This document shows, piece after piece, positions 3,275-27,839 of a stretch of DNA of 39,238 nucleotides. The number at the start of each line of letters is the position of its first letter. Positions within the stretch are counted from its first letter, which is position 1. Position numbers and translations under genes: made by a program. The notes beneath the pieces were generated by a model. That model was not told the DNA's origin, did not search any database, and saw only the letters and a program-made list of their open reading frames with translations. This DNA is from a virus (lineage: Duplodnaviria; Heunggongvirae; Uroviricota; Caudoviricetes), in the IMG/VR virus record IMGVR_UViG_2728369393_000005; one strand, written 5' to 3'.

Positions 3275-3520
3275 TCAGTCAGTGTTTCTGGCTAACCAGC
3301 AACGCGCGCCAGATTCGGTTTTAAACGTTTTGCTTTTGGTATATGTCATCGCGGTGAACGTACCGCCCTGGTTGGGGAACACGCCGTACACCAGAGATTC
3401 GTTGTTGCCAAGATCGATAGTATCCATGTTGACCTCATTTCCCCTTAACGCCGGGGTAGCGGAACTGTTTGCTGAGAACACCGTGCGGTGTCTTGATGGA
3501 TCGTAATTTAGTTTTCTCAT
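3275..3520 (-). CDS. Hypothetical early leftward-operon protein (81 aa)
   Basis: ORF on the same strand as the exo/xis/int operon; start codon embedded in one of the operator-like ATGAGAAAACT motifs; no recognisable domain. Confidence 0.5.
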   Translation of the reverse strand: MRKLNYDPSRHRTVFSANSSATPALRGNEVNMDTIDLGNNESLVYGVFPNQGGTFTAMTYTKSKTFKTESGARCWLARNTD

Positions 3521-3557
3521 GAATATTGGTCAAGTGCTTTTGATGAGAAAACTCAAT
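3503..3557. promoter_or_regulatory. Operator-like inverted repeat (OL-like) downstream of the repressor gene
   Basis: ATTTAGTTTTCTCAT (3506..3520) and ATGAGAAAACTCAAT (3543..3557) form 14/15-bp inverted arms separated by 22 bp; same core GAGAAAACT recurs at 4010..4018 (minus) and 4079..4087. Confidence 0.4.
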
Positions 3558-3618
3558 ATTTAATGCAAAATAAAGCCAATACATTGAAATGTAAGGCTTT
3601 AAAATTTGTGAAGGGGGG

Positions 3619-4026
3619 TTATTGATGTTTGTTACGTTTGCGAGCTTCTAGTAGCTCGGTGAATAGGCGATTAAAATTCTCAACGCGGGCACGGAGTTCG
3701 CTGATTTGTGCTTGCTGCTCTGATTTTGGAAGTGCGCGATACAATCGCAACATCTCCAACTCATCTTCCGATAAGTCTAAGGCGCTGTTGAGTGCAACTG
3801 GTGGATCTGGTGTTTTATCCTCGTCACCAAACAGTATCCAAGTTGGTGAACATTGCAATACCTCAGCCAGGCGATGCAAATTTTGCCCGCGCGGGGCTGT
3901 ATGGTCGCTTTCCCATAGTGAAATTGATGAGCCAGATACGCCAGCAGCTTTGCTTAAATCGTTTTGACTTAAACCAACCTGTTTGCGTCTTTCTCTAATT
4001 CGTTGACCTAAAGTTTTCTCGTTCAT
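3619..4026 (-). CDS. XRE-family HTH repressor (135 aa, no S24 peptidase domain)
   Basis: N-terminal LGQRIRERRKQVGLSQNDLSKAAGVSGSSISLWE is a classic Cro/CI-type helix-turn-helix; divergent from the cro-like gene. Confidence 0.8.
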   Translation of the reverse strand: MNEKTLGQRIRERRKQVGLSQNDLSKAAGVSGSSISLWESDHTAPRGQNLHRLAEVLQCSPTWILFGDEDKTPDPPVALNSALDLSEDELEMLRLYRALPKSEQQAQISELRARVENFNRLFTELLEARKRNKHQ

Positions 4027-4048
4027 ATTTAGATATCTTAATAACCCT

Positions 4049-4091
4049 TGACTTGAGATTCCTTGAGTGATTACTATTGAGAAAACTCAAC
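4049..4091 (+). promoter_or_regulatory. Rightward promoter/operator (pR/OR-like): -35 TTGACT, 17-bp spacer, -10 TACTAT, TTGAG half-sites
   Basis: TTGACT at 4049..4054 and TACTAT at 4072..4077; TTGAG at 4053, 4063 and 4077 (about 10-14 bp apart); TTGAGAAAACTCAA at 4077..4090 has palindromic arms. Confidence 0.45.
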
Positions 4092-4103
4092 TTTGGAGGG
4101 GTG

Positions 4104-4331
4104 ATGTTTAAATCAGACGTAATTAATTTTTATGGGACGAAAGCCAAAGTAGCGAAAGCTGCTGGTGTTGATCCATCTGCTGTTTCTCAATGGGGGGAAC
4201 TGGTTCCTGAAGGTCGCGCGATGCGCCTGCAAGAGGCATCCGGCGGGGAACTTCAGTACGACCCCAAAGTTTATGACGAATATCGTAAGGCAAAGCGGGC
4301 GGGGCGGTTGAACAATGAAAATCACCCCTGA
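4104..4331 (+). CDS. Cro-like HTH regulator (75 aa from ATG 4104; ORF track starts at TTG 4077)
   Basis: GGAGG Shine-Dalgarno at 4095..4099 before ATG 4104; KAKVAKAAGVDPSAVSQW is HTH-like; divergent from the repressor. Confidence 0.65.
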   Translation: MFKSDVINFYGTKAKVAKAAGVDPSAVSQWGELVPEGRAMRLQEASGGELQYDPKVYDEYRKAKRAGRLNNENHP

Positions 4332-4866
4332 ACAGGTTTGTGAGGCTCTGGATGCCTGGGTATGCCGACCAGGAATGACACAGGAGCAGGCGACGATATT
4401 AATCACGGAAGCATTCTGGGCTCTGAAAGAACGCCCGAACATCGATGTTCAACGCGTCACGTTTAATGATGGCGAGGTTGATCAACGGGCGCTGTGCGTT
4501 AACCGGGTGAAGATATTCGAACGCTGGAAAGCTATCGACACCAGGGATAAGCGGAAAAAATTCACGGCGCTGATTCCGGCAATTATGGAGGCTATCCGAA
4601 TTAGTGATTTCAGGCTGTATCGTGAGATCAGTGATGGAAAAAGCATTACGTACATGATCGCCGGATTAAACAAAGAATATGGCGATGTGGTGGAGTCCGG
4701 GCTGCTTTTTGCGGATCCATCTGTTGTGGAACGTGAGACTGACGTGCTTATAGAAAAAGCTATTGCTTTCAAGCATGCGTATCGTCAGCAATATCAATAT
4801 TACTTTGCAGATAAACAAATGTCTGCCAGGGGTTCGTATGAGTATCGATGCACTACGATGGGCTAA
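4315..4866 (+). CDS. Hypothetical early protein in the cII position (183 aa; possibly YdaT/CII-like regulator)
   Basis: ORF between cro-like and replication genes; start overlaps the cro-like stop; no motif I can name with confidence. Confidence 0.45.
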   Translation: MKITPEQVCEALDAWVCRPGMTQEQATILITEAFWALKERPNIDVQRVTFNDGEVDQRALCVNRVKIFERWKAIDTRDKRKKFTALIPAIMEAIRISDFRLYREISDGKSITYMIAGLNKEYGDVVESGLLFADPSVVERETDVLIEKAIAFKHAYRQQYQYYFADKQMSARGSYEYRCTTMG

Positions 4867-5878
4867 AAAGGTGAAAACCGGCAGTTCATCCAGTAAGTCT
4901 GTATTGACCTGGCTTGCTGATATGTGCGGTGCCGATTTGTGTGCATACCCGTCTGTATCTGCACTGGCAGAAGTAACGGAACTGAACAAAAAGACTGTGC
5001 AGGACAGCTTACGACACCTGATGGAGATTGGGTTAATTGTTGATACCGGTGAGAGAAAAGGCAGAACAAAGCAAATTGTGGTGTACCGACTTATCGGTGT
5101 AGAAGAAAGTGTTGCCGAGCCTGAATACACCCAAAAACGGGAGTCTTTAAAGGTGGGTAAAATCGGTGCTGTTAATAAAAACAGTACCGAAAATGGTTAT
5201 GTTTCAGCACAAAACAGACCCAAAAACGGAACTCTTAGCTGCATGGAAAATAACCAAAGACACCCAAATTTTCCATCAAAGACACCCAAAAACGGATCAC
5301 GGAACCCAAAGGAACCCAAAGAGCTAAACCCCACACATAACGCACGCGAGAGTGCTCCGACCAGTGAGCAGAAAGTTTTGTCGTTACAGGCTGCACCTCC
5401 TGTATTCCTGGATGGCCTGAGCGAACCCATCGAAAAATTTCCGATGACCGATAGCTGGTATCCGTCACGGGATTTTCGACGACGGGCTGCGTTGTGGGGG
5501 ATGGCTTTGCCGGAGACAGAATTCACACCTGCTGAACTTGCCGCCTTCCGGGACTACTGGGCTGCTGAGGGGAAAGTGTTTACGCAGATTCAGTGGGAGC
5601 AGAAATTCGCCCGTCACGTAAATCACGTCAGGGCGCAGGTTAAACCAGTCAGCAAGGGGGTAAACCATGCAGCAGCACCAGGTGACACCGCATCACGGGC
5701 AGTTCAGGAAATTCGGGCAGCACGTGAGCAGTGGGAACGTGAAAACGGATTTATCAGCGACGGAAACGGCCTGGAAGCTGTGGGAACTCATGGGGGAGGT
5801 TTATTCGAACCGCTGGACCCAGAAGAACGGGGCCGCACCTTCGAAGCTCTGGATTGCACAGATTGGTGCGATGACTGA
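4838..5878 (+). CDS. Replication initiation protein, O-like, with N-terminal winged helix (3' end uncertain)
   Basis: MSIDALRWAKKV ... LAEVTELNKKTVQDSLRHLMEIGLIVDTG resembles phage replication-initiator N-termini; the last ~70 codons overlap the P-like gene and may be frameshift read-through after the G5 run at 5656..5660. Confidence 0.55.
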   Translation: MSIDALRWAKKVKTGSSSSKSVLTWLADMCGADLCAYPSVSALAEVTELNKKTVQDSLRHLMEIGLIVDTGERKGRTKQIVVYRLIGVEESVAEPEYTQKRESLKVGKIGAVNKNSTENGYVSAQNRPKNGTLSCMENNQRHPNFPSKTPKNGSRNPKEPKELNPTHNARESAPTSEQKVLSLQAAPPVFLDGLSEPIEKFPMTDSWYPSRDFRRRAALWGMALPETEFTPAELAAFRDYWAAEGKVFTQIQWEQKFARHVNHVRAQVKPVSKGVNHAAAPGDTASRAVQEIRAAREQWERENGFISDGNGLEAVGTHGGGLFEPLDPEERGRTFEALDCTDWCDD

Positions 5879-6332
5879 GCAGCAAATCCGACAGGTCTGC
5901 CGCCAGTGCATGGACCGCTGCCGGGCGGGTGAAACATGGCCTCCGGACCTGGCTGAGTTTGTGGCGCTGATTTCGGAAAGCGGAGCCAATCCATTCGGTC
6001 TGACGGTGGATGCCGTGATGGAGGAGTACCGTCGCTGGCGCAACGAGTCCTGGCGATACGACGGGAGCGATAAATACCCGTGGTCTCAGCCTGTGCTGTA
6101 TCACATTTGCCTCGAGATGCGTTCAAAGGGGATTGAGCGGCAGATGACCGAAGGGGAGTTAAAACGGCTTGCAGAACGGCAGCTGACGAAATGGGCAAAG
6201 CATGTTAGTAACGGCCTGAGTGTTCCGCCAGTCCGGCGACAACTGGCGGCACCCAAACGCCCGTCGGGGCCAACGCCAATTGAGTTGCTGAAACAGGAAT
6301 ATGAACGCCGGAAAGCGGCTGGGCTTGTCTGA
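5667..6332 (+). CDS. Replication protein P-like (helicase loader)
   Basis: Central and C-terminal similarity to lambda P as recalled (WIAQIGAMTEQQIRQV versus WVLAFRENGITTMEQV; YPW ... RQL region); follows the O-like gene. Confidence 0.6.
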   Translation: MQQHQVTPHHGQFRKFGQHVSSGNVKTDLSATETAWKLWELMGEVYSNRWTQKNGAAPSKLWIAQIGAMTEQQIRQVCRQCMDRCRAGETWPPDLAEFVALISESGANPFGLTVDAVMEEYRRWRNESWRYDGSDKYPWSQPVLYHICLEMRSKGIERQMTEGELKRLAERQLTKWAKHVSNGLSVPPVRRQLAAPKRPSGPTPIELLKQEYERRKAAGLV

Positions 6333-6364
6333 GTTGAGAAGTAATTTTTACCGGGAGGAAATTT

Positions 6365-6639
6365 ATGGAGACTGTTTTTGACGCACTGAAAGCAATGGGA
6401 AAAGCCACATCCATAGAACTTGCTGCGCGCGTGAAGAAGTGCTGAACGAACTATGGGAACTGAAAAAGGCTGGTTTTGTTGATAAAAGCGCGTACACCTG
6501 GCGTGTGGCTGATAACAACGTTCAGCAGGAACAGCCAGCGCAGGCAGAACTGCCGGAAGAAACCACCACAATGAGTGAAGTTATGCAGCGCATACTGGCA
6601 TTTTATCAGGGAAATGTTCGATATTTTAGACGTTACTAG
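6365..6639 (+). pseudogene. Small winged-helix-like protein split by a frameshift near 6431..6445
   Basis: ATG 6365 frame ([26 protein letters not shown]-stop) switches to the ORF 6439..6639 frame ([26 protein letters not shown]); the two halves read as one protein with a single-base indel. Confidence 0.4.
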
Positions 6640-7082
6640 ATTAAAGAGCATTAGTTCAGATGTGAATTGACATTGTGTGGCACAGGGTTGGGCTAGCGTG
6701 GGGGTTTGCTTTGTGTAAGAAACGGATGCTCTGCAAATTACTACTAATGCTTAATGTTAGTCTGATCTGCTCCCCGATGATTAATTAATACACCGCTATG
6801 TTAGTAATGTCTGTAGATCGCTGTGTGTTGCATCCATCGGTTGACCCCACAGTCCAAACCAGACTGTCAGCTTTGATTCGATTCTATCTACTCAACCTGT
6901 CAGGTAATGTCTGAGCTAATACACAGAGTACGGCTATCGCGAACTTTAAGCTAGGTATCTGATACGCACCGTTCACTTGGTTGTACTTCTTGCACTGACT
7001 AGCTATCGTGCGCAGTTATTTATAGGTAATCTCCAGTGTATAATTTTCCAACTTATGGGAGATTGTAAAACAGGAGGAATAT

Positions 7083-7925
7083 ATGAGGAAAAAATCGTTT
7101 GGACGTTGCCCGTTTGATTTCGACGAAGATGTAAAAAAAATAGCCGCGATAAATAAATATATCCATGCGAAATTTGAGAGGCATAAAAATAAAATAGATA
7201 ACCTAAAGGGGGTGGAACAAAAATTGATGGTTTTACATTACTTTAATGTACTGAATGAACTTAGTAATCAGGCTATATTTTCTTTGAGTACCGGAGCCTT
7301 TTCAGCATCGGAAGTATTAACTAGAGTTATAATGGAACAGGCTGCCAATCAATTTTATATAGCAATTGATGATGGAAAAAATGCACAAGCATTACTCAAG
7401 GGTAGTAAGAAATTAGTTCATAGTAATGGGAAACGGTGGCTGGAGTGTTTAAAATCCAAAGAAATGACTAATCCAGCAGCAGATGAAAGGATTCGTATCG
7501 GAAAAGAGCTAACTGATATGTTTAATAGATTGTGGCCAAATACACCTGAATATCCTGGAACCAAAAAGCTTTTCGAAGTAATTGGCTGGGAAACACACTA
7601 TCATGCCTATTACGTCCCTCTTTGTGATTCAATACATACATTCTCTGATGATATGGCAAATATAGTATCTCTATATAATGCAATCCAAAGCGATAAAACT
7701 ACTGCTATCGAACTCACTCTTGCAGTTAAACAAGAAAATAAACGGCTGGCAATTTATAATGTCGTAATTGCTATTGGCCTGCGGTGTGAGGCCTTAGTAA
7801 ATGTATTTAACTCTTTAGGTTATCGAGATATTATAACTGAAATGGCGCCAACAATAGATGCAGTCAACCAGATTATAATTCGATATGATGATTTCGAACA
7901 TTCCAGAATTTTTTATTGTCAATAA
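7083..7925 (+). CDS. Hypothetical 280-aa protein with its own promoter and strong RBS; function unknown
   Basis: AGGAGG at 7071..7076 before ATG 7083; TATAAT at 7043..7048; long AT-rich ORF; C-terminal RYDDFEH fits a loose Rx4-6H pattern, speculative. Confidence 0.6.
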   Translation: MRKKSFGRCPFDFDEDVKKIAAINKYIHAKFERHKNKIDNLKGVEQKLMVLHYFNVLNELSNQAIFSLSTGAFSASEVLTRVIMEQAANQFYIAIDDGKNAQALLKGSKKLVHSNGKRWLECLKSKEMTNPAADERIRIGKELTDMFNRLWPNTPEYPGTKKLFEVIGWETHYHAYYVPLCDSIHTFSDDMANIVSLYNAIQSDKTTAIELTLAVKQENKRLAIYNVVIAIGLRCEALVNVFNSLGYRDIITEMAPTIDAVNQIIIRYDDFEHSRIFYCQ

Positions 7926-7999
7926 TTAATTGGCAGAATTCGTACATGCACAACAACTAGTTATAGTTGACCTATTTCGCTCTTGAGAGACAACCATAC

Positions 8000-8551
8000 T
8001 CAAATCTTCCACATTGCAGGAGATTTGAGTATGAATACGTCACCGAGGAACAAAGACAGTATCATAGGCCCAAAAAGACCACTTCAGATATCTCATATCT
8101 GGGGGCTCCAAATCCGGCTTGAACTGGAAGGTAAAACGCGTGATTTAGCTCGGTTTCAAGCAGAGCTACGGTGCTGCAACTGAAAAACTGGCAGTCCTAT
8201 CCAATTTGAGATAACCAAAGGGACAAGAGAAGCTGTTTCTGCATTGATAAAGCTTGGCAATTTACGCAGTAAAGACTACTTGTTCCGATCTCGGGTCGGT
8301 ACTAACCAACACATATCAATCCTGCAATATAACCGAATCTTTCATAGGAGGGAGAAAAGCTTGGTCTCGAAGATTCGCTTTACAGCACACATTCCATGAG
8401 AAGAACAAAACCTTGCCTTGTCTGCAAGAAAACTAAGAATCTCCGGGTGATCCAACTTCCGTTGGGCCATAAGAAAACGGAAAGCACAGTTCGTTATCTG
8501 GGTATAGAAGTTGATGATGCATTAGAGATCTCTGAATCGATCGAAGTCTAA
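8000..8551 (+). pseudogene. Decayed tyrosine recombinase gene (fragments in three frames)
   Basis: Fragments KDYLFRSRVGTNQHIS, ALQHTFHEK and LRVIQLPLGHKKTESTVRYLGIEV-stop (ends 8551) resemble recombinase box II and the C-terminal LGH-x8-Y catalytic tyrosine region, but lie in different frames. Confidence 0.45.
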
Positions 8552-8963
8552 AGCTGTCAGGGCTGCAGCAGCAGCCCTGTGCCAAGAGCGTACCAATATA
8601 TGTCTCAAAAAATTGGGCACAGGTCAATATCAATACCAACAACTCTGATTGTGCTCATGTGATTTACTCCTGTAGAAAACGCAGACAGTAAAAATATTTC
8701 ACTGGCTGCTTCAGACAGGGCGTCCATCATATCATTACATAACAATAGCGGGGCACGATATCTAGACATGCAGCAACGATGGACATAGAATGAGTACAAT
8801 CAAAAGCATGTTTAACTACTTTAATTTAAAAATCTTAGAATCTTAGGTGTAGAGTTCAATACTTAGTTACATACCCTTTTGAAAGCATCACAAATCATAA
8901 CTATGAGCCTGTTAAAGGCATAGGTATTCTTAATTAAGAGCATTTTAATGAGAGAAAAATAAA

Positions 8964-10337
8964 ATGAAAAGACTATATTATACCCATCATGATAGTCGAA
9001 CCTTAAAACTTGCTATAGAAGGTGATGTTTCTGATAATGCGAATATTTTTACAGTAATTGTAGGTAAAAATGGCGTTGGAAAAAGCAGATTGTTATCTCA
9101 GATTGCTAAAGACTGTATTCAAGATGTTCATTTCTTGAAAACTTTTAATCCATTATTTGACAGAGAAATAACACCAAAGTTAATTGCCGTATCTACCAGC
9201 CCATTCGATAAATTCCCTCCAGGGCGTAGGTCATTAAATCACCAAAGGAAAGAAAATAATTATCGCTATGTGGGTATGCGTGGAGAAGGCCCCTTCGGCG
9301 TATCAAATGCCGTATCCCTTTTATCTTCAGCAGCGAGAGGTTGGCTAGAGAAACTTGCTTATTCAGAAAATCCTGCAAATTTACTCGATGTTTTTCATTC
9401 TATTGATTTTGAGCCCCATATAGAGTTTGTATTTAAACCAACTTACAACGGACCGGACACTCCTGACTATAACTTCATTGGTGTATATTCAGATGAGATA
9501 TTAACGGAAGTTAAGGAGTTATATTTAAAATACAATATAAAAATTGACAGGAAGAATATTGAGAGTCTCTTAAAGTTAAACTCCGAATCACGTCATGATA
9601 TTTACGAAGCACTGGTTGAAATTAATCGATTTGAACCTGAACGTAGGGCTGTAACCTTGTCAGTCGATTTTACCAATGGTGAAACATTGGTTGGCTCGAC
9701 TTATGCGAATAATTATTTTTCTAGATCAATTCTTAAACTTATGAACGCTGGCTTCATGAGATTGATGGATATGCGACTCATAAAAAAAAGCTATGGTCCC
9801 ATGTCACTTAAACGTGCGAGCTCGGGAGAACAATGTTTATTAGTGATGTTGCTTGGAATTGCAGGGCATATAACTGATGGTTCTATAATACTAATTGATG
9901 AACCGGAAATAAGCTTGCATCCTCGATGGCAGGAAGAGTTTATCATTATGTTAACAAAAGCATTTTTAACTTACTCAGGTTGTCAATTCATAATTGCAAC
10001 TCATTCACCACAAATAATATCCAATTTGCCGAATAAAGGTTGTTATATAACATCTTTGTCGAAAAGTTATCTTTATAAAGCAAAATACTTTAGCAACCGG
10101 TCTGCAGACTATCAACTTGCGGAACTATTTGATGCCCCTGGCATTATGAATGAATACATTGCCAGATTAGCTTTCAATTTACTTTCAAAAGTTAAGACTG
10201 CTAAGTTAGTAACAGATGATAATTGGCGTGAATTAAAACAACTCCAGCTTCTCCTTGAAAACGTTAATAGTAATGACCCTATTAATGAACTCGTAAATTC
10301 CGTATCTCAGGTGTGTGAAATTTATGCCAAAAATTAA
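8964..10337 (+). CDS. ABC-type (AAA_21/SMC-like) ATPase, 457 aa; PtuA-like candidate
   Basis: Walker A VGKNGVGKSRLL, signature-like SSGEQ, Walker B IILIDEPEISLHP, H-loop IIATHSP; stop overlaps the start of the downstream HNH gene. Confidence 0.75.
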   Translation: MKRLYYTHHDSRTLKLAIEGDVSDNANIFTVIVGKNGVGKSRLLSQIAKDCIQDVHFLKTFNPLFDREITPKLIAVSTSPFDKFPPGRRSLNHQRKENNYRYVGMRGEGPFGVSNAVSLLSSAARGWLEKLAYSENPANLLDVFHSIDFEPHIEFVFKPTYNGPDTPDYNFIGVYSDEILTEVKELYLKYNIKIDRKNIESLLKLNSESRHDIYEALVEINRFEPERRAVTLSVDFTNGETLVGSTYANNYFSRSILKLMNAGFMRLMDMRLIKKSYGPMSLKRASSGEQCLLVMLLGIAGHITDGSIILIDEPEISLHPRWQEEFIIMLTKAFLTYSGCQFIIATHSPQIISNLPNKGCYITSLSKSYLYKAKYFSNRSADYQLAELFDAPGIMNEYIARLAFNLLSKVKTAKLVTDDNWRELKQLQLLLENVNSNDPINELVNSVSQVCEIYAKN

Positions 10338-10959
10338 AAATCCAATTAGATTCAGCGCAGAGTCATTAGATATTATTGAGAAAAAATTGTCTTCTCCAGA
10401 TTTTAAGCATACCAACTGGGGAGATGATGATTTGCAAGTTCTCCGTGCAGAAATTAGAAATCATTACAGAGAAGAACAAAAGCTAGAATGTGTATATTGT
10501 CATGAGCCTATTGGGGTAAGAGCTGCACAAGCTGCTCCTATAGAGCATATTGTGCCAAAATCTCAATATCTATGTTTTATTTTTGAACCTAAGAATCTAT
10601 GTGTAGTATGTCCTGACTGCAATGAATTCAAAGGTAAAAATGAAGTGTTATTTGAACCCGTAATAAATGGGGGGCGGCGCAAAAACTATCCAACTGCATC
10701 TGCATCATTTCGCATCGTTCATCCACATATAGATGATTATGAGATGCATATTATAAAAGCAAATCGTGTTTATGTGGACAAAACACCTAAAGGGCACTAT
10801 ACCATTGGAATATGTAAACTAAATAGATTTTTTCATTATTTTGGGATGTGTGATGAATTTGTTAATGATGCAAAAATTGCTGAGGCAAATGAAAATTTTT
10901 TCAAAAAAGGTAGTATTACTACTAATGAATTATTGGATGATGACATTCATTTGATTTAA
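10324..10959 (+). CDS. HNH endonuclease, about 212 aa; PtuB-like candidate
   Basis: CVYCHEP ... EHIVPKS ... CPDCNEFKG gives the CxxC-H ... H ... CxxC HNH zinc-finger pattern; ATG 10324 overlaps the ATPase 3' end by 14 nt (GTG 10315 by 23 nt). Confidence 0.75.
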   Translation: MPKIKNPIRFSAESLDIIEKKLSSPDFKHTNWGDDDLQVLRAEIRNHYREEQKLECVYCHEPIGVRAAQAAPIEHIVPKSQYLCFIFEPKNLCVVCPDCNEFKGKNEVLFEPVINGGRRKNYPTASASFRIVHPHIDDYEMHIIKANRVYVDKTPKGHYTIGICKLNRFFHYFGMCDEFVNDAKIAEANENFFKKGSITTNELLDDDIHLI

Positions 10960-11272
10960 CTATGAATTATTATATTGTAAAGTAATCAGGTAAGATATGT
11001 TAGACAGTGAGACTATTGCCTTACAGAATTCATTATTCTTATGGATCGCCTTTCTGACTGATTTCATATTGGCGGGGTAACGGGAGTTAAGTAGAATGGC
11101 TGCGGGTGCTTGAGGCTATCTGTCTCAGGCATGAACACCAAAGGCAGATAGAGAAAAGCCCCAGTTAACATTACGCGTCCTGCAAGACGCTTAACATTAA
11201 TCTGAGGCCAATTTCATGCTAGACACATGTAGGTTAGCCTCTTACGTGCCGGAAGGCAAGGAGAAGCAGGCT

Positions 11273-11428
11273 ATGAAGCAGCAAAAGGCGATGTTAATCG
11301 CCCTGATCGTCATCTGTTTAACCGTCATAGTGACGACACTGGTAACGAGGAAAGACCTCTGCGAGGTACGAATCCGAACCGGCCAGACGGAGGTCGCTGT
11401 CTTCACAGCTTACGAACCTGAGGAGTAA
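11273..11428 (+). CDS. hokD: Hok/Gef-family type I toxin (51 aa)
   Basis: MKQQKAMLIALIVICLTVIVTTLVTRKDLCEVRIRTGQTEVAVFTAYEPEE matches Hok-family (HokD/RelF-like) sequence from memory; hairpin and intrinsic terminator follow. Confidence 0.65.
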   Translation: MKQQKAMLIALIVICLTVIVTTLVTRKDLCEVRIRTGQTEVAVFTAYEPEE

Positions 11429-11498
11429 GAGACCCGGCGAGGGAGAAATCCCTCGCCACCTCTGATGTGGCAGGCATCCTCAACGCACCCGCACTTAA

Positions 11499-11517
11499 CC
11501 CGCTTCGGCGGGTTTTT
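11499..11517 (+). terminator. Intrinsic terminator downstream of hok (CCCGC-TTCG-GCGGG + T-run)
   Basis: Stem-loop followed by TTTTTGTT read directly. Confidence 0.4.
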
Positions 11518-11785
11518 GTTTTTATTTTCAACGCGTTTGAAGTTCTGGACGGCGCCGGAATAGAATCAAAAATACTTAAGTAGCGCGCAGGGATAAGAGG
11601 GATGGTCCCTTAAAGGGGAGAGCTAATTATCCGGAAGGATTCTGATGATGAACATCGAAGAACTGCGTAAAATTTTTTGTGAAGATGGCCTCTATGCTGT
11701 GTGCGTTGAAAATGGAAATCTTGTTAGTCATTACCGCATTATGTGTTTGCGAAAGGTAAGCGTCAACGGAGCACCGTATTGACGC

Positions 11786-13401
11786 TTATTTATTGGTGAG
11801 TACTACGTTCCATGGCAGGAGTTCATCAACTCGGTTGGAAGGCCATTCCGGCAGTACGCTCAGGATATGGCGCAGATACGCTTCCGGATCGATACCGTTC
11901 AGACGGCAGGTGCCGATCAGCCCGTACAACAGTGCTCCACGCTCGCCGCCGTGATCGCTGCCAAAGAACATAAACTTTTTCTTTCCGAGACAGACTGCAC
12001 GAAGCGCTCTTTCCGCAGCATTATTATCCGCCTCCGCCAGACCGTCATCACTGTAATAACAGAGGGCATCCCACTGATTCAGTACATAGCTGAACGCTTC
12101 GCCCAGTCTGGATTTTTTCGACAGCGTACCATTCTTCTCCACCATCCATTCATGCAGCGACGTCAGTAACACTTTGCTTCGCTGCTGCCTGACGGCAAGA
12201 CGCTCTGACTCCGGTAATCCCCGTATTTCATCCTCGATGGCGTACAGTTCACTGATTCGCTTCAGGGCTTCTTCTGCCGTCGCACTTTTGCTGCTGATGT
12301 ATACATCGTGGATTTTTCGCCGGGCATGGGCCCAGCACGCAACTTCTGTCAGTGCACCACCTTCACGTTCTGCACTGAACAACCTGTCGTAACCTGTGAA
12401 CGCATCCGCCTGCAGGATACCCCGGAAGGGGCGGAGGTGTTGCTCCGGGTGTTTCCCCTGCCGGTTCGGCGAGTACGCGAACCAGACCGCTGGAGGAGAT
12501 GACGAACCCACATTGCGATCATCCCGGACATACGTCCAGATACGCCCTGTTTTCGCCTTTTTCTGACCCGGTGCCAGTACCTTTACCGGTGTGTCATCAG
12601 TGTGAACCTTGCGGGTGTTCATTACATAACGGTACAGGGCATCATTCACCGGTGTCATTAACTGGCAGCACGCGTCAACCCAGTTGGAGAGTAAGGCCCG
12701 GCTCAGTTCGACACCCTGGCGGGCAAAGATTTCACTCTGACGATACAGTGGCAGATGTTCGCAGTATTTTCCCGTTAACACGCGGGCAAGTAATCCGGGG
12801 CCCCCGCGATACCACGCTCTATCGGGCGGGACGGCGCCGGTGCTTCAACAATACAGTCACATTTTGTACAGGCTTTTTTTACCCGTTCTGTGCGGATCAC
12901 TTTCAGGGCACTGCTCACCAGTTCCAGCTGTTCAGCGCTGACTTCCCCCAGATAATCCAGCTCACCGCCACACTCCGGGCAACAGCTTTCTTCTGGCTCC
13001 AGGCGGTGTATTTCTCGGGGAAGGTGTGCCGGTAACGGACGACGATGGCGCGACTGTCGCAACTGGCGGGGAACCTGAGGATCGTCTTCCCGCCCACTGT
13101 AACGATCGCTGTCCTGTTCACGTTGTTTCAGCAGAGCCTCAGCCAGTTCAACTTCACGACGCAGTTTTTCAGAACGGGTACCGAACAGCATCCGGCGCAG
13201 TTTTTCTATCTGAGCCCGCAGATGTTCTATTTCCCGTTCATCTTCTTCGATCTTTTCTTCGGCACGTGTCAGTGCAGAGCGCAGGAAGGCTTCCGTCTCT
13301 TCAACCAGACTCAGTTGCTGGTCTTTCTGACGGAGGGCTTCAGCCTGCTCAGAGAGCAATCTTTCCAGCTCTGCGATGCGAATGAGGTATTTCTGACTCA
13401 T
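11786..13401 (-). pseudogene. IS66 transposase TnpC, split by a frameshift at a G/C homopolymer (12797..12805)
   Basis: N-terminal fragment 12775..13401 (Cys-rich zinc-finger CCPECG ... CTKCDC) and C-terminal fragment 11786..12781 (GKYCEHLPLYRQ ...) together equal a full-length TnpC. Confidence 0.75.
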
Positions 13402-13431
13402 GACCGTTTTTATAATGCGGTCAGGAGTTTT

Positions 13432-13782
13432 TTACAACATTGTCAGTGAGTTACGGCTGGATGTTTTTGGCTGACGCCAGTCCAGCTTATCGAGGAGCAT
13501 TGCCAGTTGCGAGCGGGTAATGGATACCTTGCCGTCACGTACCGCAGGCCAGATAAACTGGCCTTCCTCCAGGCGTTTGGTGAACAGGCACAGACCATCA
13601 GCATCAGCCCAAAGAATTTTGACGGTGTCACCCCGTCGGCCACGGAAGATAAACAGGTGACCGGAGAAGGGATTATCATTCAGCACATGTTGTACCTGTT
13701 CTCCCAGTCCGTTGAAGGATTTACGCATATCGGTAACGCCGGCAACGAGCCAGATACGGGTACCTGATGGGAGTGAGATCAT
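13432..13782 (-). CDS. IS66 family TnpB (Orf2)
   Basis: 116-aa ORF (MISLPSGTRIWLVAGVTDMRKSFNGL ...) typical of IS66 Orf2, upstream of tnpC. Confidence 0.8.
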   Translation of the reverse strand: MISLPSGTRIWLVAGVTDMRKSFNGLGEQVQHVLNDNPFSGHLFIFRGRRGDTVKILWADADGLCLFTKRLEEGQFIWPAVRDGKVSITRSQLAMLLDKLDWRQPKTSSRNSLTML

Positions 13783-14204
13783 CTTCCCCTCCCGGTCAGT
13801 TCACGGATCAACACCGTGAGCAGCTCTGGCGATGGATTTTCCAGCGTCATGTTACCGTGACGGAATTCCACCTTGCAGGAACTGGCACTGACTCTGGTCT
13901 GAGTGGAAGTGGATAAAGACGGCGCAATGGCCGCCACAGGTTCTTTCTGCTCATCCGGCGTTATTTCTACAGGTAATAATTCAACGCCAGTGTCAGAAGA
14001 GGTCGTTACCGGAAGACGCCGCGAAACACGCCCTTCGTTCTGCCAGAGCCTGAGCCATTTGAAAATAACATTATCATTGACGCCATTTTCACGTGCAATC
14101 TGTGCAACACAAGCTCCAGGTTGTGATGCCAGTTCCACCATACGAAGTTTGAATTCATTCGAATAGTTTTTACGAGGTTCTTTTCGCCAGTCCTGTAATT
14201 CCAT
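13779..14204 (-). CDS. IS66 family TnpA (Orf1, HTH)
   Basis: 141-aa ORF overlapping tnpB by 4 nt; first gene of the IS66 operon. Confidence 0.75.
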   Translation of the reverse strand: MELQDWRKEPRKNYSNEFKLRMVELASQPGACVAQIARENGVNDNVIFKWLRLWQNEGRVSRRLPVTTSSDTGVELLPVEITPDEQKEPVAAIAPSLSTSTQTRVSASSCKVEFRHGNMTLENPSPELLTVLIRELTGRGR

Positions 14205-14257
14205 ACTTAGATGTCCGTCTATATCAGATGGGCGTCTAAGTTACCAATTCTCGTCTG

Positions 14258-16183
14258 ATGGCTACATACGGCGGTCAGTTTACGCTTACGGTGATCACCG
14301 GGATTACGTCAACGCCTTCTCCGGATCGGGATGGTGACATCCTGGAGCCGGAGGGGGCGGAGTTTGGCTGTGCGATCCCGTTTCTCTGGCAGCATGACCA
14401 TTCCCGCCCGGTGGGCCAGTGTACGGTACGCCGGGTCAGTGAAGGTCTGGAAATCACGGCAACACTGGTGAAGCCCGTACCGGATATGCCGTCGCAACTG
14501 GCTGCCCGGCTGGATGAGGTCTGGGCGGCCATTAAGACCGGGCTGGTCAGGGGGCTGTCCGTGGGCTTCCGTCCCCATGAATACACCTTTCTGGACGGAG
14601 GCGGACTGCATTTTCTGCGCTGGGAACTGATGGAGGTGTCTGCCGTCACCGTGCCCGCGAATGCGGAATGCACCATCCGGACCATTAAATCTTACGACCG
14701 CCCGTTTTCTGCCGCGTCCGGCAACCGGAAACCGGTGGTGAAAATCGCATCTTCTGCCGTCGCTGCGGCACAGTCAACAACCGTTTTTCATAAGGAAAAG
14801 ACAGTAATGAATACTGGTGAACAGATTAAAAGTTTTGAAAACAAGCGTGCTGCACTGGCAGCCTCTCTTGAGGAGATCATGACCAAAGCCGCAGAGGAAG
14901 GCCGCACGCTGGATGTGGAGGAGGAAGAGCATTACGACAACACCGCGGCGGAAATCCGCCAGGTGGATGCGCACCTGAAGCGTCTGCGTGAACTGGAGGC
15001 CGGTAAGGCCGCCACGGCACAGCCGGTGAAACAGGCCGGTAACGGTGACGTTGTGACGGTGAGTTCAGTGACGGTGAGTTCAGCGCCGGTGATCCGTGTG
15101 GAGCAGAAACTGGATAAGGGGATTGGCTTTGCCCGCTTTGCCAAATCGCTGGCTGCGGCTAAAGGTGTCCGCTCTGAGGCCCTGGAAGTGGCCCGTCGTC
15201 AGTATCCGGATGACAGCCGTCTGCACCATGTCCTGAAATCGGCGGTGGGGGCGGGAACCACCACGGATCCACAGTGGGCAGGCAGCCTGTCTGAATACCA
15301 GGAATATGCGCAGGACTTTATTGACTATCTGCGTCCGCAGACCATTATCGGGCGATTTGGTCAGGGCGGGATCCCTGCACTTCGTCAGGTGCCGTTCAAT
15401 ATCCGCGTGCATGCCCAGGTGTCCGGCGGTGCTGCCAGCTGGGTGGGGGAGGGTAAGGCAAAACCGCTGACGAAGTTTGATTTTGAATCCATCACCTTCA
15501 GTCATGCGAAGGTGTCGGCCATTGCGGTACTGACGGAAGAACTGATCCGTTTTTCCAGTCCGGCTGCTGATGCGCTGGTCCGTAATGCGCTGGCAGAAGC
15601 GGTGGTGGCGCGTCTGGACACAGACTTTGTGGACCCGAAAAAAGCGGCGGTGGCGGATGTCTCCCCGGCGTCCATCACCCATGATGTGAAGGGCACGGCA
15701 TCAACCGGTAACCCGGATGCGGATGCCGAGGCCGCGTTTGGCCAGTTTGTGACGGCAAATCTGCAGCCCACTGGTGCGGTCTGGCTGATGTCCAGCACGA
15801 ATGCCCTGGCGCTGTCCATGCGTAAAAATGCGCTGGGTCAGAAGGAATATCCGGACATGACCCTGCTGGGCGGGACCTTTCAGGGGCTTCCGGTGATTGT
15901 CTCCCAGTATGTGGGTGACCAGCTGGTACTGGTGAATGCACCGGATATTTATCTGGCGGATGACGGCGGTGTGGCAGTGGATATGTCCCGTGAAGCGTCA
16001 CTGGAAATGCAGTCTGAGCCGGGCGGCGACAGCACCACACCGTCGCCGGTGGAGCTGGTTTCCATGTTCCAGACCGGCAGCGTGGCCATCCGTGCGGAGC
16101 GCTGGATCAACTGGCGTCGTCGCCGTACTGCGGCGGTGGCGGTGATCACCGGTGTGAACTACGGCAGTGCGTCCGGCGGCTGA
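14258..16183 (+). CDS. HK97-family prohead protease fused to major capsid protein (641 aa)
   Basis: N-terminal DRDGDIL ... LSVGFRP ... LMEVSAVTVPAN protease motifs, then a capsid-like C-terminal domain; the first ~11 codons lie inside the IS66 terminal repeat, so the true start may be GTG 14291. Confidence 0.75.
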   Translation: MATYGGQFTLTVITGITSTPSPDRDGDILEPEGAEFGCAIPFLWQHDHSRPVGQCTVRRVSEGLEITATLVKPVPDMPSQLAARLDEVWAAIKTGLVRGLSVGFRPHEYTFLDGGGLHFLRWELMEVSAVTVPANAECTIRTIKSYDRPFSAASGNRKPVVKIASSAVAAAQSTTVFHKEKTVMNTGEQIKSFENKRAALAASLEEIMTKAAEEGRTLDVEEEEHYDNTAAEIRQVDAHLKRLRELEAGKAATAQPVKQAGNGDVVTVSSVTVSSAPVIRVEQKLDKGIGFARFAKSLAAAKGVRSEALEVARRQYPDDSRLHHVLKSAVGAGTTTDPQWAGSLSEYQEYAQDFIDYLRPQTIIGRFGQGGIPALRQVPFNIRVHAQVSGGAASWVGEGKAKPLTKFDFESITFSHAKVSAIAVLTEELIRFSSPAADALVRNALAEAVVARLDTDFVDPKKAAVADVSPASITHDVKGTASTGNPDADAEAAFGQFVTANLQPTGAVWLMSSTNALALSMRKNALGQKEYPDMTLLGGTFQGLPVIVSQYVGDQLVLVNAPDIYLADDGGVAVDMSREASLEMQSEPGGDSTTPSPVELVSMFQTGSVAIRAERWINWRRRRTAAVAVITGVNYGSASGG

Positions 16184-27571: not shown

Positions 27572-27839
27572 AAGCGAAAAAATCCCGCAGTGCTCACGGA
27601 CAGGAACTGCGGGAGAGTTACGAAGATTGAGTGTAAGGAATTATTCTTATGTCACGACAAAAACATTAACGCAGAGAAATTATACGCGCCACAGTCAGTT
27701 TGTGAAAATGTGAAGATATTCAGAATTTCTTCTGTAATAGAAATACATTCAGAGAGGGAGGATGTGCCGTTCTTTTCAGGGAGAAAGGATTTATCGTCCT
27801 GAGGAATAAAGGTAAGGGGCCTGCCCCTTACCTGACTGA

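Follow-up and report, generated by a model that had tools for sequence, protein, structure and literature searches.

This study concerns an AT-rich islet, and the decayed tyrosine recombinase inside it, in IMG/VR virus record IMGVR_UViG_2728369393_000005, a stretch of 39,238 nucleotides of Caudoviricetes DNA that is referred to as the window throughout. The islet carries a gene of the DUF5677 family, the recombinase remnant and an ATPase-HNH gene pair of the Septu type. Type I Septu (PtuA/PtuB) was reportedly described by Doron in 2018 and by Li et al. in 2024 (NSMB). The pair in the window resembles it in forming an overlapping two-gene operon of an ABC/AAA_15-21 ATPase and an HNH nuclease with all catalytic motifs present, but it belongs to another sequence subfamily than the solved PtuA.

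For the left part of the islet the closest described locus is the Z/fun region of phage P2, where Nilsson, Karlsson and Haggard-Ljungquist are said to have reported inverted repeats in 2004 (Mol Biol Evol 21:1), in a paper whose title puts forward site-specific recombination as a hypothesis. The DUF5677 block of the window is 89% identical to the P2 version, begins at the same nucleotide after the repeat and keeps a fossil of it, and the class A and class B sites described below form the inner ends of the P2 repeats as annotated. In contrast to P2, the backbone in the window is lambdoid and the slot lies between P and hokD instead of G and FI, and only the DUF5677 block, the recombinase stretch and the repeat fossil are shared.

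Two other known arrangements come close. Integrons likewise have a tyrosine recombinase gene beside arrays of promoter-poor or single-function cassettes, with imperfect palindromic junctions between the cassettes (here a B site, 18 nt and an A site, together 66 bp). However, the recombinase discussed here has 194-202 aa, consists of the catalytic domain only and reaches no IntI or Xer equivalog threshold; its cassettes lie on both sides of it with genes in either orientation, the sites are unrelated to attC, and the cargo is anti-phage rather than resistance genes. In the pdif modules of Acinetobacter plasmids, inverted XerC/D sites bracket cargo modules in several backbones, which is similar to the bracketing of cargo by A and B sites. 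The dif site has an 11-6-11 layout compared with 8-8-8 here, and the arrays described here include a small recombinase gene of their own.

According to the part of the RADS account that is drawn on here (PMC13552941; bioRxiv 10.1101/2025.10.07.681051), small serine recombinases stand beside variable anti-phage genes in Bacillota, with DUF5677 enriched nearby. These are serine and not tyrosine recombinases, and no bracketing sites are described in that part of the account. The accounts of P2/P4 hotspots (Rousset 2022; NAR 2026, PMC13586616) leave the small recombinase and the 24-bp sites unmentioned. Septu, prophage defence hotspots and the inverted repeats of P2 Z/fun are already known. The islet is probably the payload of a variable slot, in which a recombinase core and its A and B sites would have served cassette exchange and of which the window holds a fossilised copy. 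More tentatively, and with somewhat more doubt than belief, the dead gene may be the fossil of an undescribed integron-like anti-phage platform in Enterobacteria, based on a Xer-like recombinase of ~200 aa and two classes of sites.

Limits and composition of the cargo slot

The window is near-identical to the chromosome of Escherichia coli CFSAN004176 (NZ_CP014583.1), where the record coordinate of window position p is about 4,953,924 + p. Over 7926-8964 the window is one base off this record, yet the same as strain E2348/69, and it may stem from another, slightly differing assembly or strain. Relatives of the slot were found with a query joining the two flanks of the islet. Comparison with sister prophages that lack the islet, which the initial annotation had suggested, set the limits of the cargo at 6727 and 11039. 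Homology to a prophage with queH in this place reaches up to 6511, is found again at 6573-6727 and resumes at 11039, directly past the queH stop codon, and the cargo of the window thus spans 6728-11038 (+ strand, 4311 bp). The same flanks with queH (753 bp) as cargo occurred in at least 30 genomes among the matches listed, and a second prophage of the same strain has paa and a fimbrial fragment between them. Both of these cargoes sit in the slot without the recombinase. In this Rac/Qin-like family of lambdoid prophages the slot is located between the replication module (DnaT-like O, P, DUF1627, DUF977) and sok/hokD. The comparisons support the view of the islet as foreign cargo of a variable slot rather than prophage backbone.

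The initial annotation had reported a switch to AT-rich composition between the replication genes and the hok locus, and this was borne out by a GC scan and by the GC content at third codon positions (GC3) of the islet genes. GC fell from 0.53-0.58 at 5250-6500 to 0.32-0.39 over ~6750-11100 and returned to 0.50 at 11000-11500, with a local bump of 0.43 at 8000-8750 inside the islet. The exact cargo (6728-11038) has 36.5% GC and the remainder of the window 52.1%. The islet cargo is also the lowest-GC stretch of 4.3 kb in the entire window, with the minimum at position 6701. GC3 was 0.21-0.28 for the DUF5677 gene, ptuA and ptuB, and 0.67 for P and hokD.

The payload consists of three units, namely the DUF5677 cassette, a ~620-bp remnant of a small tyrosine recombinase gene and the Septu cassette. 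The listed gene content (a 280-aa gene, a broken tyrosine recombinase and an ATPase-HNH pair) was therewith recovered in full. The whole islet was found in 19 of 5426 complete E. coli genomes, in prophages at three or more integration sites (serU; potC/potB, as in the enteropathogenic E. coli (EPEC) strain E2348/69; and a site near nleF). A search of a phage collection with the islet and Septu DNA gave no match.

The recombinase core and the 24-bp junction sites

The small tyrosine recombinase pseudogene was located at 8031-8551 (+ strand) by tblastn with an intact 194-aa protein, and PGAP labels it "frameshifted; internal stop". A deletion of ~74 bp (residues ~43-78, including the LRGCDL region with the catalytic Arg), an in-frame stop and a frameshift near residue 133 were mapped, which agrees with the decayed gene of the initial annotation. 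The window copy lacks the intact R...HxxR...H...Y catalytic set, as the first Arg region is deleted. Intact copies elsewhere, with 85-99% amino-acid identity, have the LRGCDL, HSMRR, LGH and RYL motifs and match PF00589 at 3.9e-17. They comprise the catalytic domain only (194-202 aa), and the gene lies inside the islet and not at the end of an element. The best NCBIfam matches stayed far below cutoff, with 46.5 bits against 220 for XerA/integron integrase and 42.5 against 335 for XerC. The lesions are identical and gap-free in all carriers checked; the decay of the recombinase therefore predates the spread of the islet. As carriers at the different integration sites share the same lesions, a recent insertion into this particular prophage does not hold.

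Viral contigs were scanned with the intact recombinase protein. Full-length copies (85-94% identity) without DUF5677 were found in the same lambdoid slot, upstream of hokD. Only ~700 bp are shared among the loci, namely the gene with ~57 nt upstream and ~44 nt downstream of it, and homology is lost sharply at both ends. The decayed version of this core in the window (7977-8593, + strand) is 89-92% identical to the core of loci L043, L044, L045, L049, L050, L053 and others. The core occurs in 912 of the 5426 complete E. coli genomes (17%), with 773 of them at a coverage of at least 80%. Over the start codon of the recombinase lies a 13-nt perfect palindrome (CATACTCAAATCT / AGATTTGAGTATG; 7995-8033, + strand) that is conserved in all core copies. 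Its RNA fold was calculated at -21.2 kcal/mol in the window (z = -6.2) and at -21 to -26 kcal/mol in the core copies (z -6 to -7). The palindrome may act either as a translational lock or as a binding site for a protein.

The genes beside the core differ from locus to locus. L049 has Old on the left (3e-209) and another Septu subtype on the right (E = 0 and 2e-137), L045 has an unknown gene and PD-T7-1 (7e-157) on the left and an unknown gene followed by hokD on the right, and L053 has two unknown genes on the left and a HEPN_LA2681 protein followed by hokD on the right. In L043, two unknown genes lie on the left and two more, followed by hokD, on the right, while the P2 Z locus combines DUF5677 on the left with a membrane protein on the right. 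An intact core whose A and B sites are perfect or nearly so was also found in a non-prophage island of the ATCC 25922 and CFT073 chromosomes (L141/L142, 300-9800). The neighbours there are patatin-like phospholipase, RdcB-family, dynamin-family and ETEC_3214-family genes, which are possibly further defence cargo.

Several genes that are bracketed by sites match neither Pfam nor PADLOC (L045 2842-3786 and 6963-7943; L043 4275-5857, 6737-7876 and 8490-9743; L053 3457-5256). By their position they are candidate new defence genes. In a Pseudomonas locus (L035, GCA_001931665.1), a small recombinase gene of 53% identity beside a DUF5677 homologue is split, with its last ~33 codons 3 kb away on the opposite strand. 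The breakpoints (3564-3604 and 6593-6633) are 41-nt inverted repeats that are 83% complementary, and the locus looks like an inversion enclosing DUF5677 with one crossover site within the recombinase gene.

The right edge of the core, ending in CTGTGCCARGAGCGGAC, corresponds in sequence to the inner end of the left repeat of P2. The underlying site has 24 bp, with 8-bp inverted arms around an 8-bp spacer, and occurs in two classes. Class A (GTCCGCTC-TGTGCCAG-GAGCGGAC) lies to the left of a cargo block and class B (GTCCGCTT-TGAGCGAG-GAGCGGAC), which is inverted, to the right of it, and their spacers differ at two positions. About 45 site matches at no more than 6 mismatches were found in 209 kb of loci, with 0.05 expected by chance. 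Over 1.1 Mb of loci, 128 A and 93 B sites were counted at no more than 4 mismatches. After the loci had been oriented, the A sites were in "+" orientation in 127 of 128 cases and the B sites in "-" orientation in all 93. The intervals from A to B (n=76) measured 0.83-5.3 kb (median 1.68 kb), and the gaps from B to A were at most 30 nt in 25 of 26 cases, mostly exactly 18 nt. The loci were chosen via the recombinase or an exact A site, and the B sites, the polarity and the spacing are independent of that choice. Because of these counts, this polarity and this spacing, cargo blocks are understood as bracketed in the order A, cargo, B and chained to each other by a B site, 18 nt and an A site.

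The recombinase gene itself occupies one such interval from B to A, and the core is bounded by B-type and A-type half-sites. Viral contigs with an exact A site (n=72) comprised 41 P2-like contigs, in which the order is G, A, cargo, B, FI, as well as 11 lambdoid and 19 other ones. The bracketing rule also holds in the ATCC 25922/CFT073 island. Homology between loci breaks at the ends of sites, i.e., at 8001/8002 in the P2-like locus L002, 6727/6728 in the window, 2804 in L045 and 8675 in L053.

In the window, the left border of the slot is formed by an eroded class-A site at 6704-6727 (+ strand; GTTTGCTT TGTGTAAG AAACGGAT) with 8 mismatches; chance alone would give 0.12 matches of this quality in the islet. 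The last base of the site is also the last one before the left homology break, and L045 and L043 have a good A site (1-2 mismatches) at the homologous position. At the right edge of the core, a class-A half-site with 6 mismatches was found at 8570-8593 (+ strand; AGCAGCCC TGTGCCAA GAGCGTAC), preceded by a GC hairpin. No class-B site was found after Septu in the window, where only these two A-type sites survive. Judged by its sequence, the islet is a degraded relative of the fully equipped loci L043, L045, L049, L053 and L141. With no B site after Septu and a dead recombinase, it is regarded as the fossil of a cassette system. It would now be inherited solely with its prophage or through homologous recombination in the flanks.

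A connection to another backbone is the DUF5677 cassette (6762-7976, + strand), which has 89.5% nucleotide identity to the Z/fun cargo of L002 from position 8001 on. The cargo of L002 begins directly after a P2 class-A site (7978-8001). Over 6762-8515 the window is 86-90% identical to the Z/fun cargo of P2-like prophages, for example in strains S88 and MS7163. This locus lies between the tail-fibre assembly gene G and the sheath gene FI, and its recombinase is intact and followed by a gene for a 125-aa membrane protein in place of Septu. The block shared with P2 starts just past the inner end of the annotated P2 "left inverted repeat" (GenBank AJ512680, AJ512683). A fossil unit of the P2 Z-region inverted repeat was located at 6841-6923 (+ strand), with the core CAGACTGTCAG at 6860-6870, and aligns with both the left and the right inverted repeats of AJ512680 and AJ512683. 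Neither a pattern search nor local alignment against shuffled sequence revealed a second P2 repeat unit in the islet.

From these patterns we infer site-specific cassette exchange. Two different spacers in inverted orientation would disfavour the excision or inversion of a block, and a double crossover between two loci with the same pair of sites could still swap their blocks. Such an exchange would explain the presence of the same DUF5677 block in the P2 Z/fun locus and in the lambdoid slot. As a platform, the recombinase and the sites would shuttle cassettes among P2 Z/fun loci, the lambdoid slot between P and hokD, and chromosomal islands.

Alternative explanations and the missing nin/Q region

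Several observations weigh against cassette exchange by this recombinase. The action of the recombinase on the A and B sites is proposed from the arrangement of the sequences and not from experiment. The recombinase lies within the fetched stretch in only ~7 of the 72 contigs with an exact A site, and as most loci with sites lack it, action in trans would be required, unless a different enzyme such as a host Xer protein or a phage integrase is responsible. The right border at 11038/11039 is common to the islet and the queH prophage and has no B site, so the last exchange at the slot is better explained by homologous or illegitimate recombination. The 34 bp that separate the DUF5677 block from the eroded A site on its left (6728-6761) match none of the compared loci, and the counts of sites and loci include duplicate loci. 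The sites could also be a structural or regulatory repeat, e.g., a hairpin insulator, that merely attracts breakpoints. On the side of the cargo, the defence activity of DUF5677 is putative. PtuA matches the solved structure 8ee4 only in the Walker B region (3e-7) and PtuB has no match in the PDB. In the part of the RADS account used here, one Bacillota DUF5677 open reading frame was assayed for defence and is not among the positives (PMC13552941; bioRxiv 10.1101/2025.10.07.681051).

Some of these observations would also be expected if the slot were an ordinary moron slot that is filled by homologous recombination in its flanks only. The 24-bp palindromes would then be passive terminator- or insulator-like hairpins comparable to REP/BIME elements, and the recombinase a passenger or pseudo-integrase. 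The off-site right border shared with the queH prophage fits this explanation, as does the absence of the recombinase in cis from the majority of site loci. The sites are able to form 8-bp GC-rich hairpins, and the turnover of P2/P4 hotspots has been explained without such a recombinase (PMC13586616). However, in three backbones that are unrelated to each other (P2, lambdoid prophages and a chromosomal island) the breakpoints coincide exactly with the ends of sites, and the strict polarity of A(+) and B(-) sites and the fixed 18-nt spacing from B to A are unexpected for passive hairpins. No T-run was found after the site hairpins, the 8-8-8 layout and the asymmetric spacer are those of core sites for tyrosine recombinases, and the core itself lies between B-type and A-type half-sites. 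A passive slot of this kind is therefore considered unlikely, even if it retains some weight.

Much less probable is the explanation closest to the initial annotation, in which one small integrative element, equipped with an integrase, inserted site-specifically between P and hok, displaced the nin/Q region and then lost its mobility. The foreign composition, the decayed tyrosine recombinase inside the islet and the intact copy of this gene elsewhere speak for it. However, the islet combines two unrelated modules, the DUF5677 cassette and the Septu cassette, one on each side of the recombinase core, and the recombinase of 194 aa has a catalytic domain only and lies between the cassettes instead of at an end. 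Border att repeats and a terminal integrase with an N-terminal DNA-binding domain, as expected of an integrative element, are missing from the islet. A search of the borders for direct and inverted repeats revealed no target duplication, and the short direct repeats that had been suggested as a check were not found there. An inverted repeat of 35 nt (6996-7030 and 8734-8768, 77% complementary) was dismissed as chance, as the P2 copy has no counterpart. In addition, queH and paa occur as cargo in the same slot without a recombinase. What remains of the earlier view is that the islet is foreign, cassette-like and carries a dead recombinase, while a single element, border repeats and a recent insertion are not supported. 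Given discrete cargo blocks with 24-bp sites and a recombinase that is dead here, "cassette-like and now immobile" is a fair description.

The displacement of nin/Q was not confirmed either. Relatives retain hokD, rem, DUF968, RusA and Q downstream; in carriers without the insertion sequence (IS) described here, the islet is followed by hokD, rem, a small gene, DUF968, RusA and Q or a DUF1133 antiterminator. As these carriers have both, nin/Q was never displaced by the islet, and the genes were removed from the window by an IS-mediated inversion. In the window, a copy of ISEc23 (IS66 family; 11756-14289, - strand) interrupts rem, which is broken at 11755/11756, and a capsid gene follows directly after it. 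The 8-mers flanking this copy differ (TGCGAAAG at 11748-11755 and GGTGATCA at 14290-14297), and the right end of the prophage abuts potB and not the serU-side flank. The predicted reciprocal junction, at which one end of the IS meets the 3' part of rem, was found in one genome only, that of this strain, at a distance of ~1.0 Mb. At this locus (L037, NZ_CP014583.1 772079-796737) a second ISEc23 lies in inverted orientation, with lysis and terminase genes on one side and the 3' part of rem, a partial DUF968 gene, effector genes and yodB on the other. The 8-bp target duplications are swapped between the two places, with the order TGCGAAAG, IS, GGTGATCA in the window and GGTGATCA, IS, TGCGAAAG in the distant copy. 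The reciprocal junction and the swapped duplications show that two ISEc23 copies, each in a different prophage, recombined with each other. An inversion of ~1 Mb between these copies explains the nin/Q, lysis and terminase genes missing from the window, and the window prophage is a chimera of the left arm of the serU prophage and the right arm of the pot prophage.

That DUF5677, the recombinase and Septu form one functional system, e.g., a phase-variable or recombinase-controlled Septu, is scarcely credible. In its favour, the three lie side by side in the same orientation in all 19 carriers, a Septu pair directly follows the recombinase in L049 as well, and the Pseudomonas recombinase gene split by the 41-nt inverted repeat around DUF5677 hints at inversion. 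Against it, the recombinase is dead in every carrier whereas ptuA and ptuB are intact, the closest Pseudomonas Septu loci have neither DUF5677 nor the recombinase, DUF5677 and the recombinase occur with many other neighbours and cargoes, respectively, and no flipped P2 cargo was found in the 5426 genomes. That the intact recombinase inverts the P2 cargo in the manner of a Fim-type switch was likewise considered and rejected, as no flipped cargo junction was present in these complete genomes and the recombinase scored only 20.6 bits against the PRK09871 invertase model (cutoff 222).

Cargo genes, surroundings and implications for defence

The Septu cassette occupies the right part of the islet (8594-11038, + strand), and no class-B site survives at its right end. 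It contains ptuA (8964-10337, + strand), an intact gene for an ABC-type ATPase of 457 aa that matches PADLOC model PDLC00283 at 1.2e-165 over residues 2-455. It is followed by ptuB (10324-10959, + strand), an intact gene for an HNH nuclease of 211 aa that matches PADLOC PDLC00325 (1.1e-83), phrog_36683 (3e-153) and Pfam HNH (4.6e-5). The two genes are co-oriented with an overlap of 14 nt. PtuA has a Walker A motif (GKNGVGKS, 34-41), a signature (SSGEQ, 286), a Walker B motif (IILIDEPE, 308-315) and an H-loop (ATHSP, 345). PtuB has CxxC at 56, H75, N91 and CxxC at 93, i.e., the Zn-finger cysteines and the catalytic His and Asn. These motifs are conserved with Pseudomonas pairs of 48-69% identity. 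Because the PADLOC matches to PtuA and PtuB are full-length, the pair is assigned to type I Septu. The retron I-A models of PADLOC scored far lower (2e-20 and 3e-8) than stand-alone PtuA and PtuB, and Rfam detected no retron RNA in 6000-12000. The initial annotation had correctly noted the pair but had left it unrecognised as a known defence system.

Within complete E. coli genomes, the Septu part was found in the 19 carriers only and always in the same context. The closest relatives in representative genomes are from Pseudomonas (66-69% identity), and the nearest Septu loci there contain neither DUF5677 nor the recombinase. A promoter-like site upstream of ptuA (8763-8791, + strand; TAGACA-17-TAGAAT) is a consensus match only, and such sites are no commoner than in shuffled sequence. 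In Septu Ec-B88 the Walker A/B and HNH residues are required for defence, and Septu and retron-Eco7 PtuAB cleave tRNA-Tyr with an abortive-infection-like phenotype (PMC13096335). The residues mutated in Ec-B88 (PMC13096335) are numbered as H75 and N91 of PtuB in the window. The mechanism of tRNA-Tyr cleavage and abortive infection can be carried over to the window allele only by analogy. Going by family membership, PtuA and PtuB would form a Septu complex in the lysogen, and upon infection by another phage nucleic acid would be cut and the infection aborted.

The DUF5677 gene (7083-7925, + strand) is intact and encodes 280 aa. It had been called an orphan, which the matches to Pfam PF18928 (3e-9) and to phrog_4167 over its full length (1e-177) contradict. 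The AlphaFold2 (AF2) model of the protein is all-helical with a pLDDT of 91, and no PADLOC model matches it. Homologues with 33-53% identity are found directly after lambda-P genes in other prophages, and others in defence islands beside CBASS, nSTAND, RelA/SpoT, MC5/CTD9 and OLD-type genes. The neighbours vary widely among loci, and DUF5677 is probably a second, uncharacterised conflict gene. An apparent QueH-DUF5677 fusion (P0006) was treated as an assembly chimera, as the metagenome contig matches the window up to 7337 and continues with unrelated DNA. This 221-aa "QueH" (L026 3634-4299; ENA ERZ761554 NODE_205) has the DUF5677 N-terminus as its first ~85 residues. Its contig is 99.6% identical to the window over 3446-7337, followed by QueH-like sequence and an SRP54 gene, and is most likely a chimera of the metagenome assembly.

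Upstream of the slot, the gene order of the window is mtfA, tRNA-Ser (serU), a frameshifted prophage integrase (1009-2059), a CI/Cro switch and a YdaT-family gene. It continues towards the islet with a DnaT-domain replication protein, a lambda-P homologue and a truncated DUF1627 gene, and the islet is thus adjoined on its left by replication genes with lambda-P-like and DnaT domains. The DUF1627 pseudogene (6365-6567, + strand) is a truncated backbone gene labelled by PGAP as "frameshifted; incomplete; missing C-terminus". Compared with the queH prophage L006, ~985 bp are absent here, consisting of the remaining DUF1627 and most of DUF977. The conserved left flank of the slot (6573-6727, + strand), made up of the 3' end of DUF977 and intergenic DNA, has 85% identity to L006 5200-5355 and 81% to L045 2650-2812, and homology ends at 6727. 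The right flank is the type I toxin-antitoxin locus sok/hokD (11104-11428, + strand; Rfam RF01794 with 117 bits, Pfam HOK_GEF 1e-23). A weak isrK-like Rfam match at 11437-11518 (25.7 bits, gathering score 50) covers the terminator hairpin downstream of hokD and is probably just the hok terminator. The right arm of the window (~27800-39200) contains sodC, a Lom/Ail gene, NleG-family and DUF1076 effector genes, a frameshifted espW and a bfpT-regulated chaperone gene, which are typical effector-exchange cargo of EPEC and enterohaemorrhagic E. coli (EHEC).

Taken at face value, the islet is an ordinary prophage-borne Septu payload that is detectable by PADLOC, and its own importance is modest. Prophages of the EPEC E2348/69 type arm their hosts with Septu and a DUF5677 gene, both of which are presumably still useful to the lysogen. 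The fast movement of defence genes between hotspots of unrelated mobile elements is currently attributed to homologous recombination in conserved flanks. If the cassette exchange described here is true, it would add a concrete shuttling mechanism, namely a natural recombinase-mediated cassette exchange with two heterospecific, polarised sites. The inverted repeats reported at P2 Z/fun in 2004 would then have a candidate enzyme, and the A and B sites would provide a simple signature for mining new defence genes.

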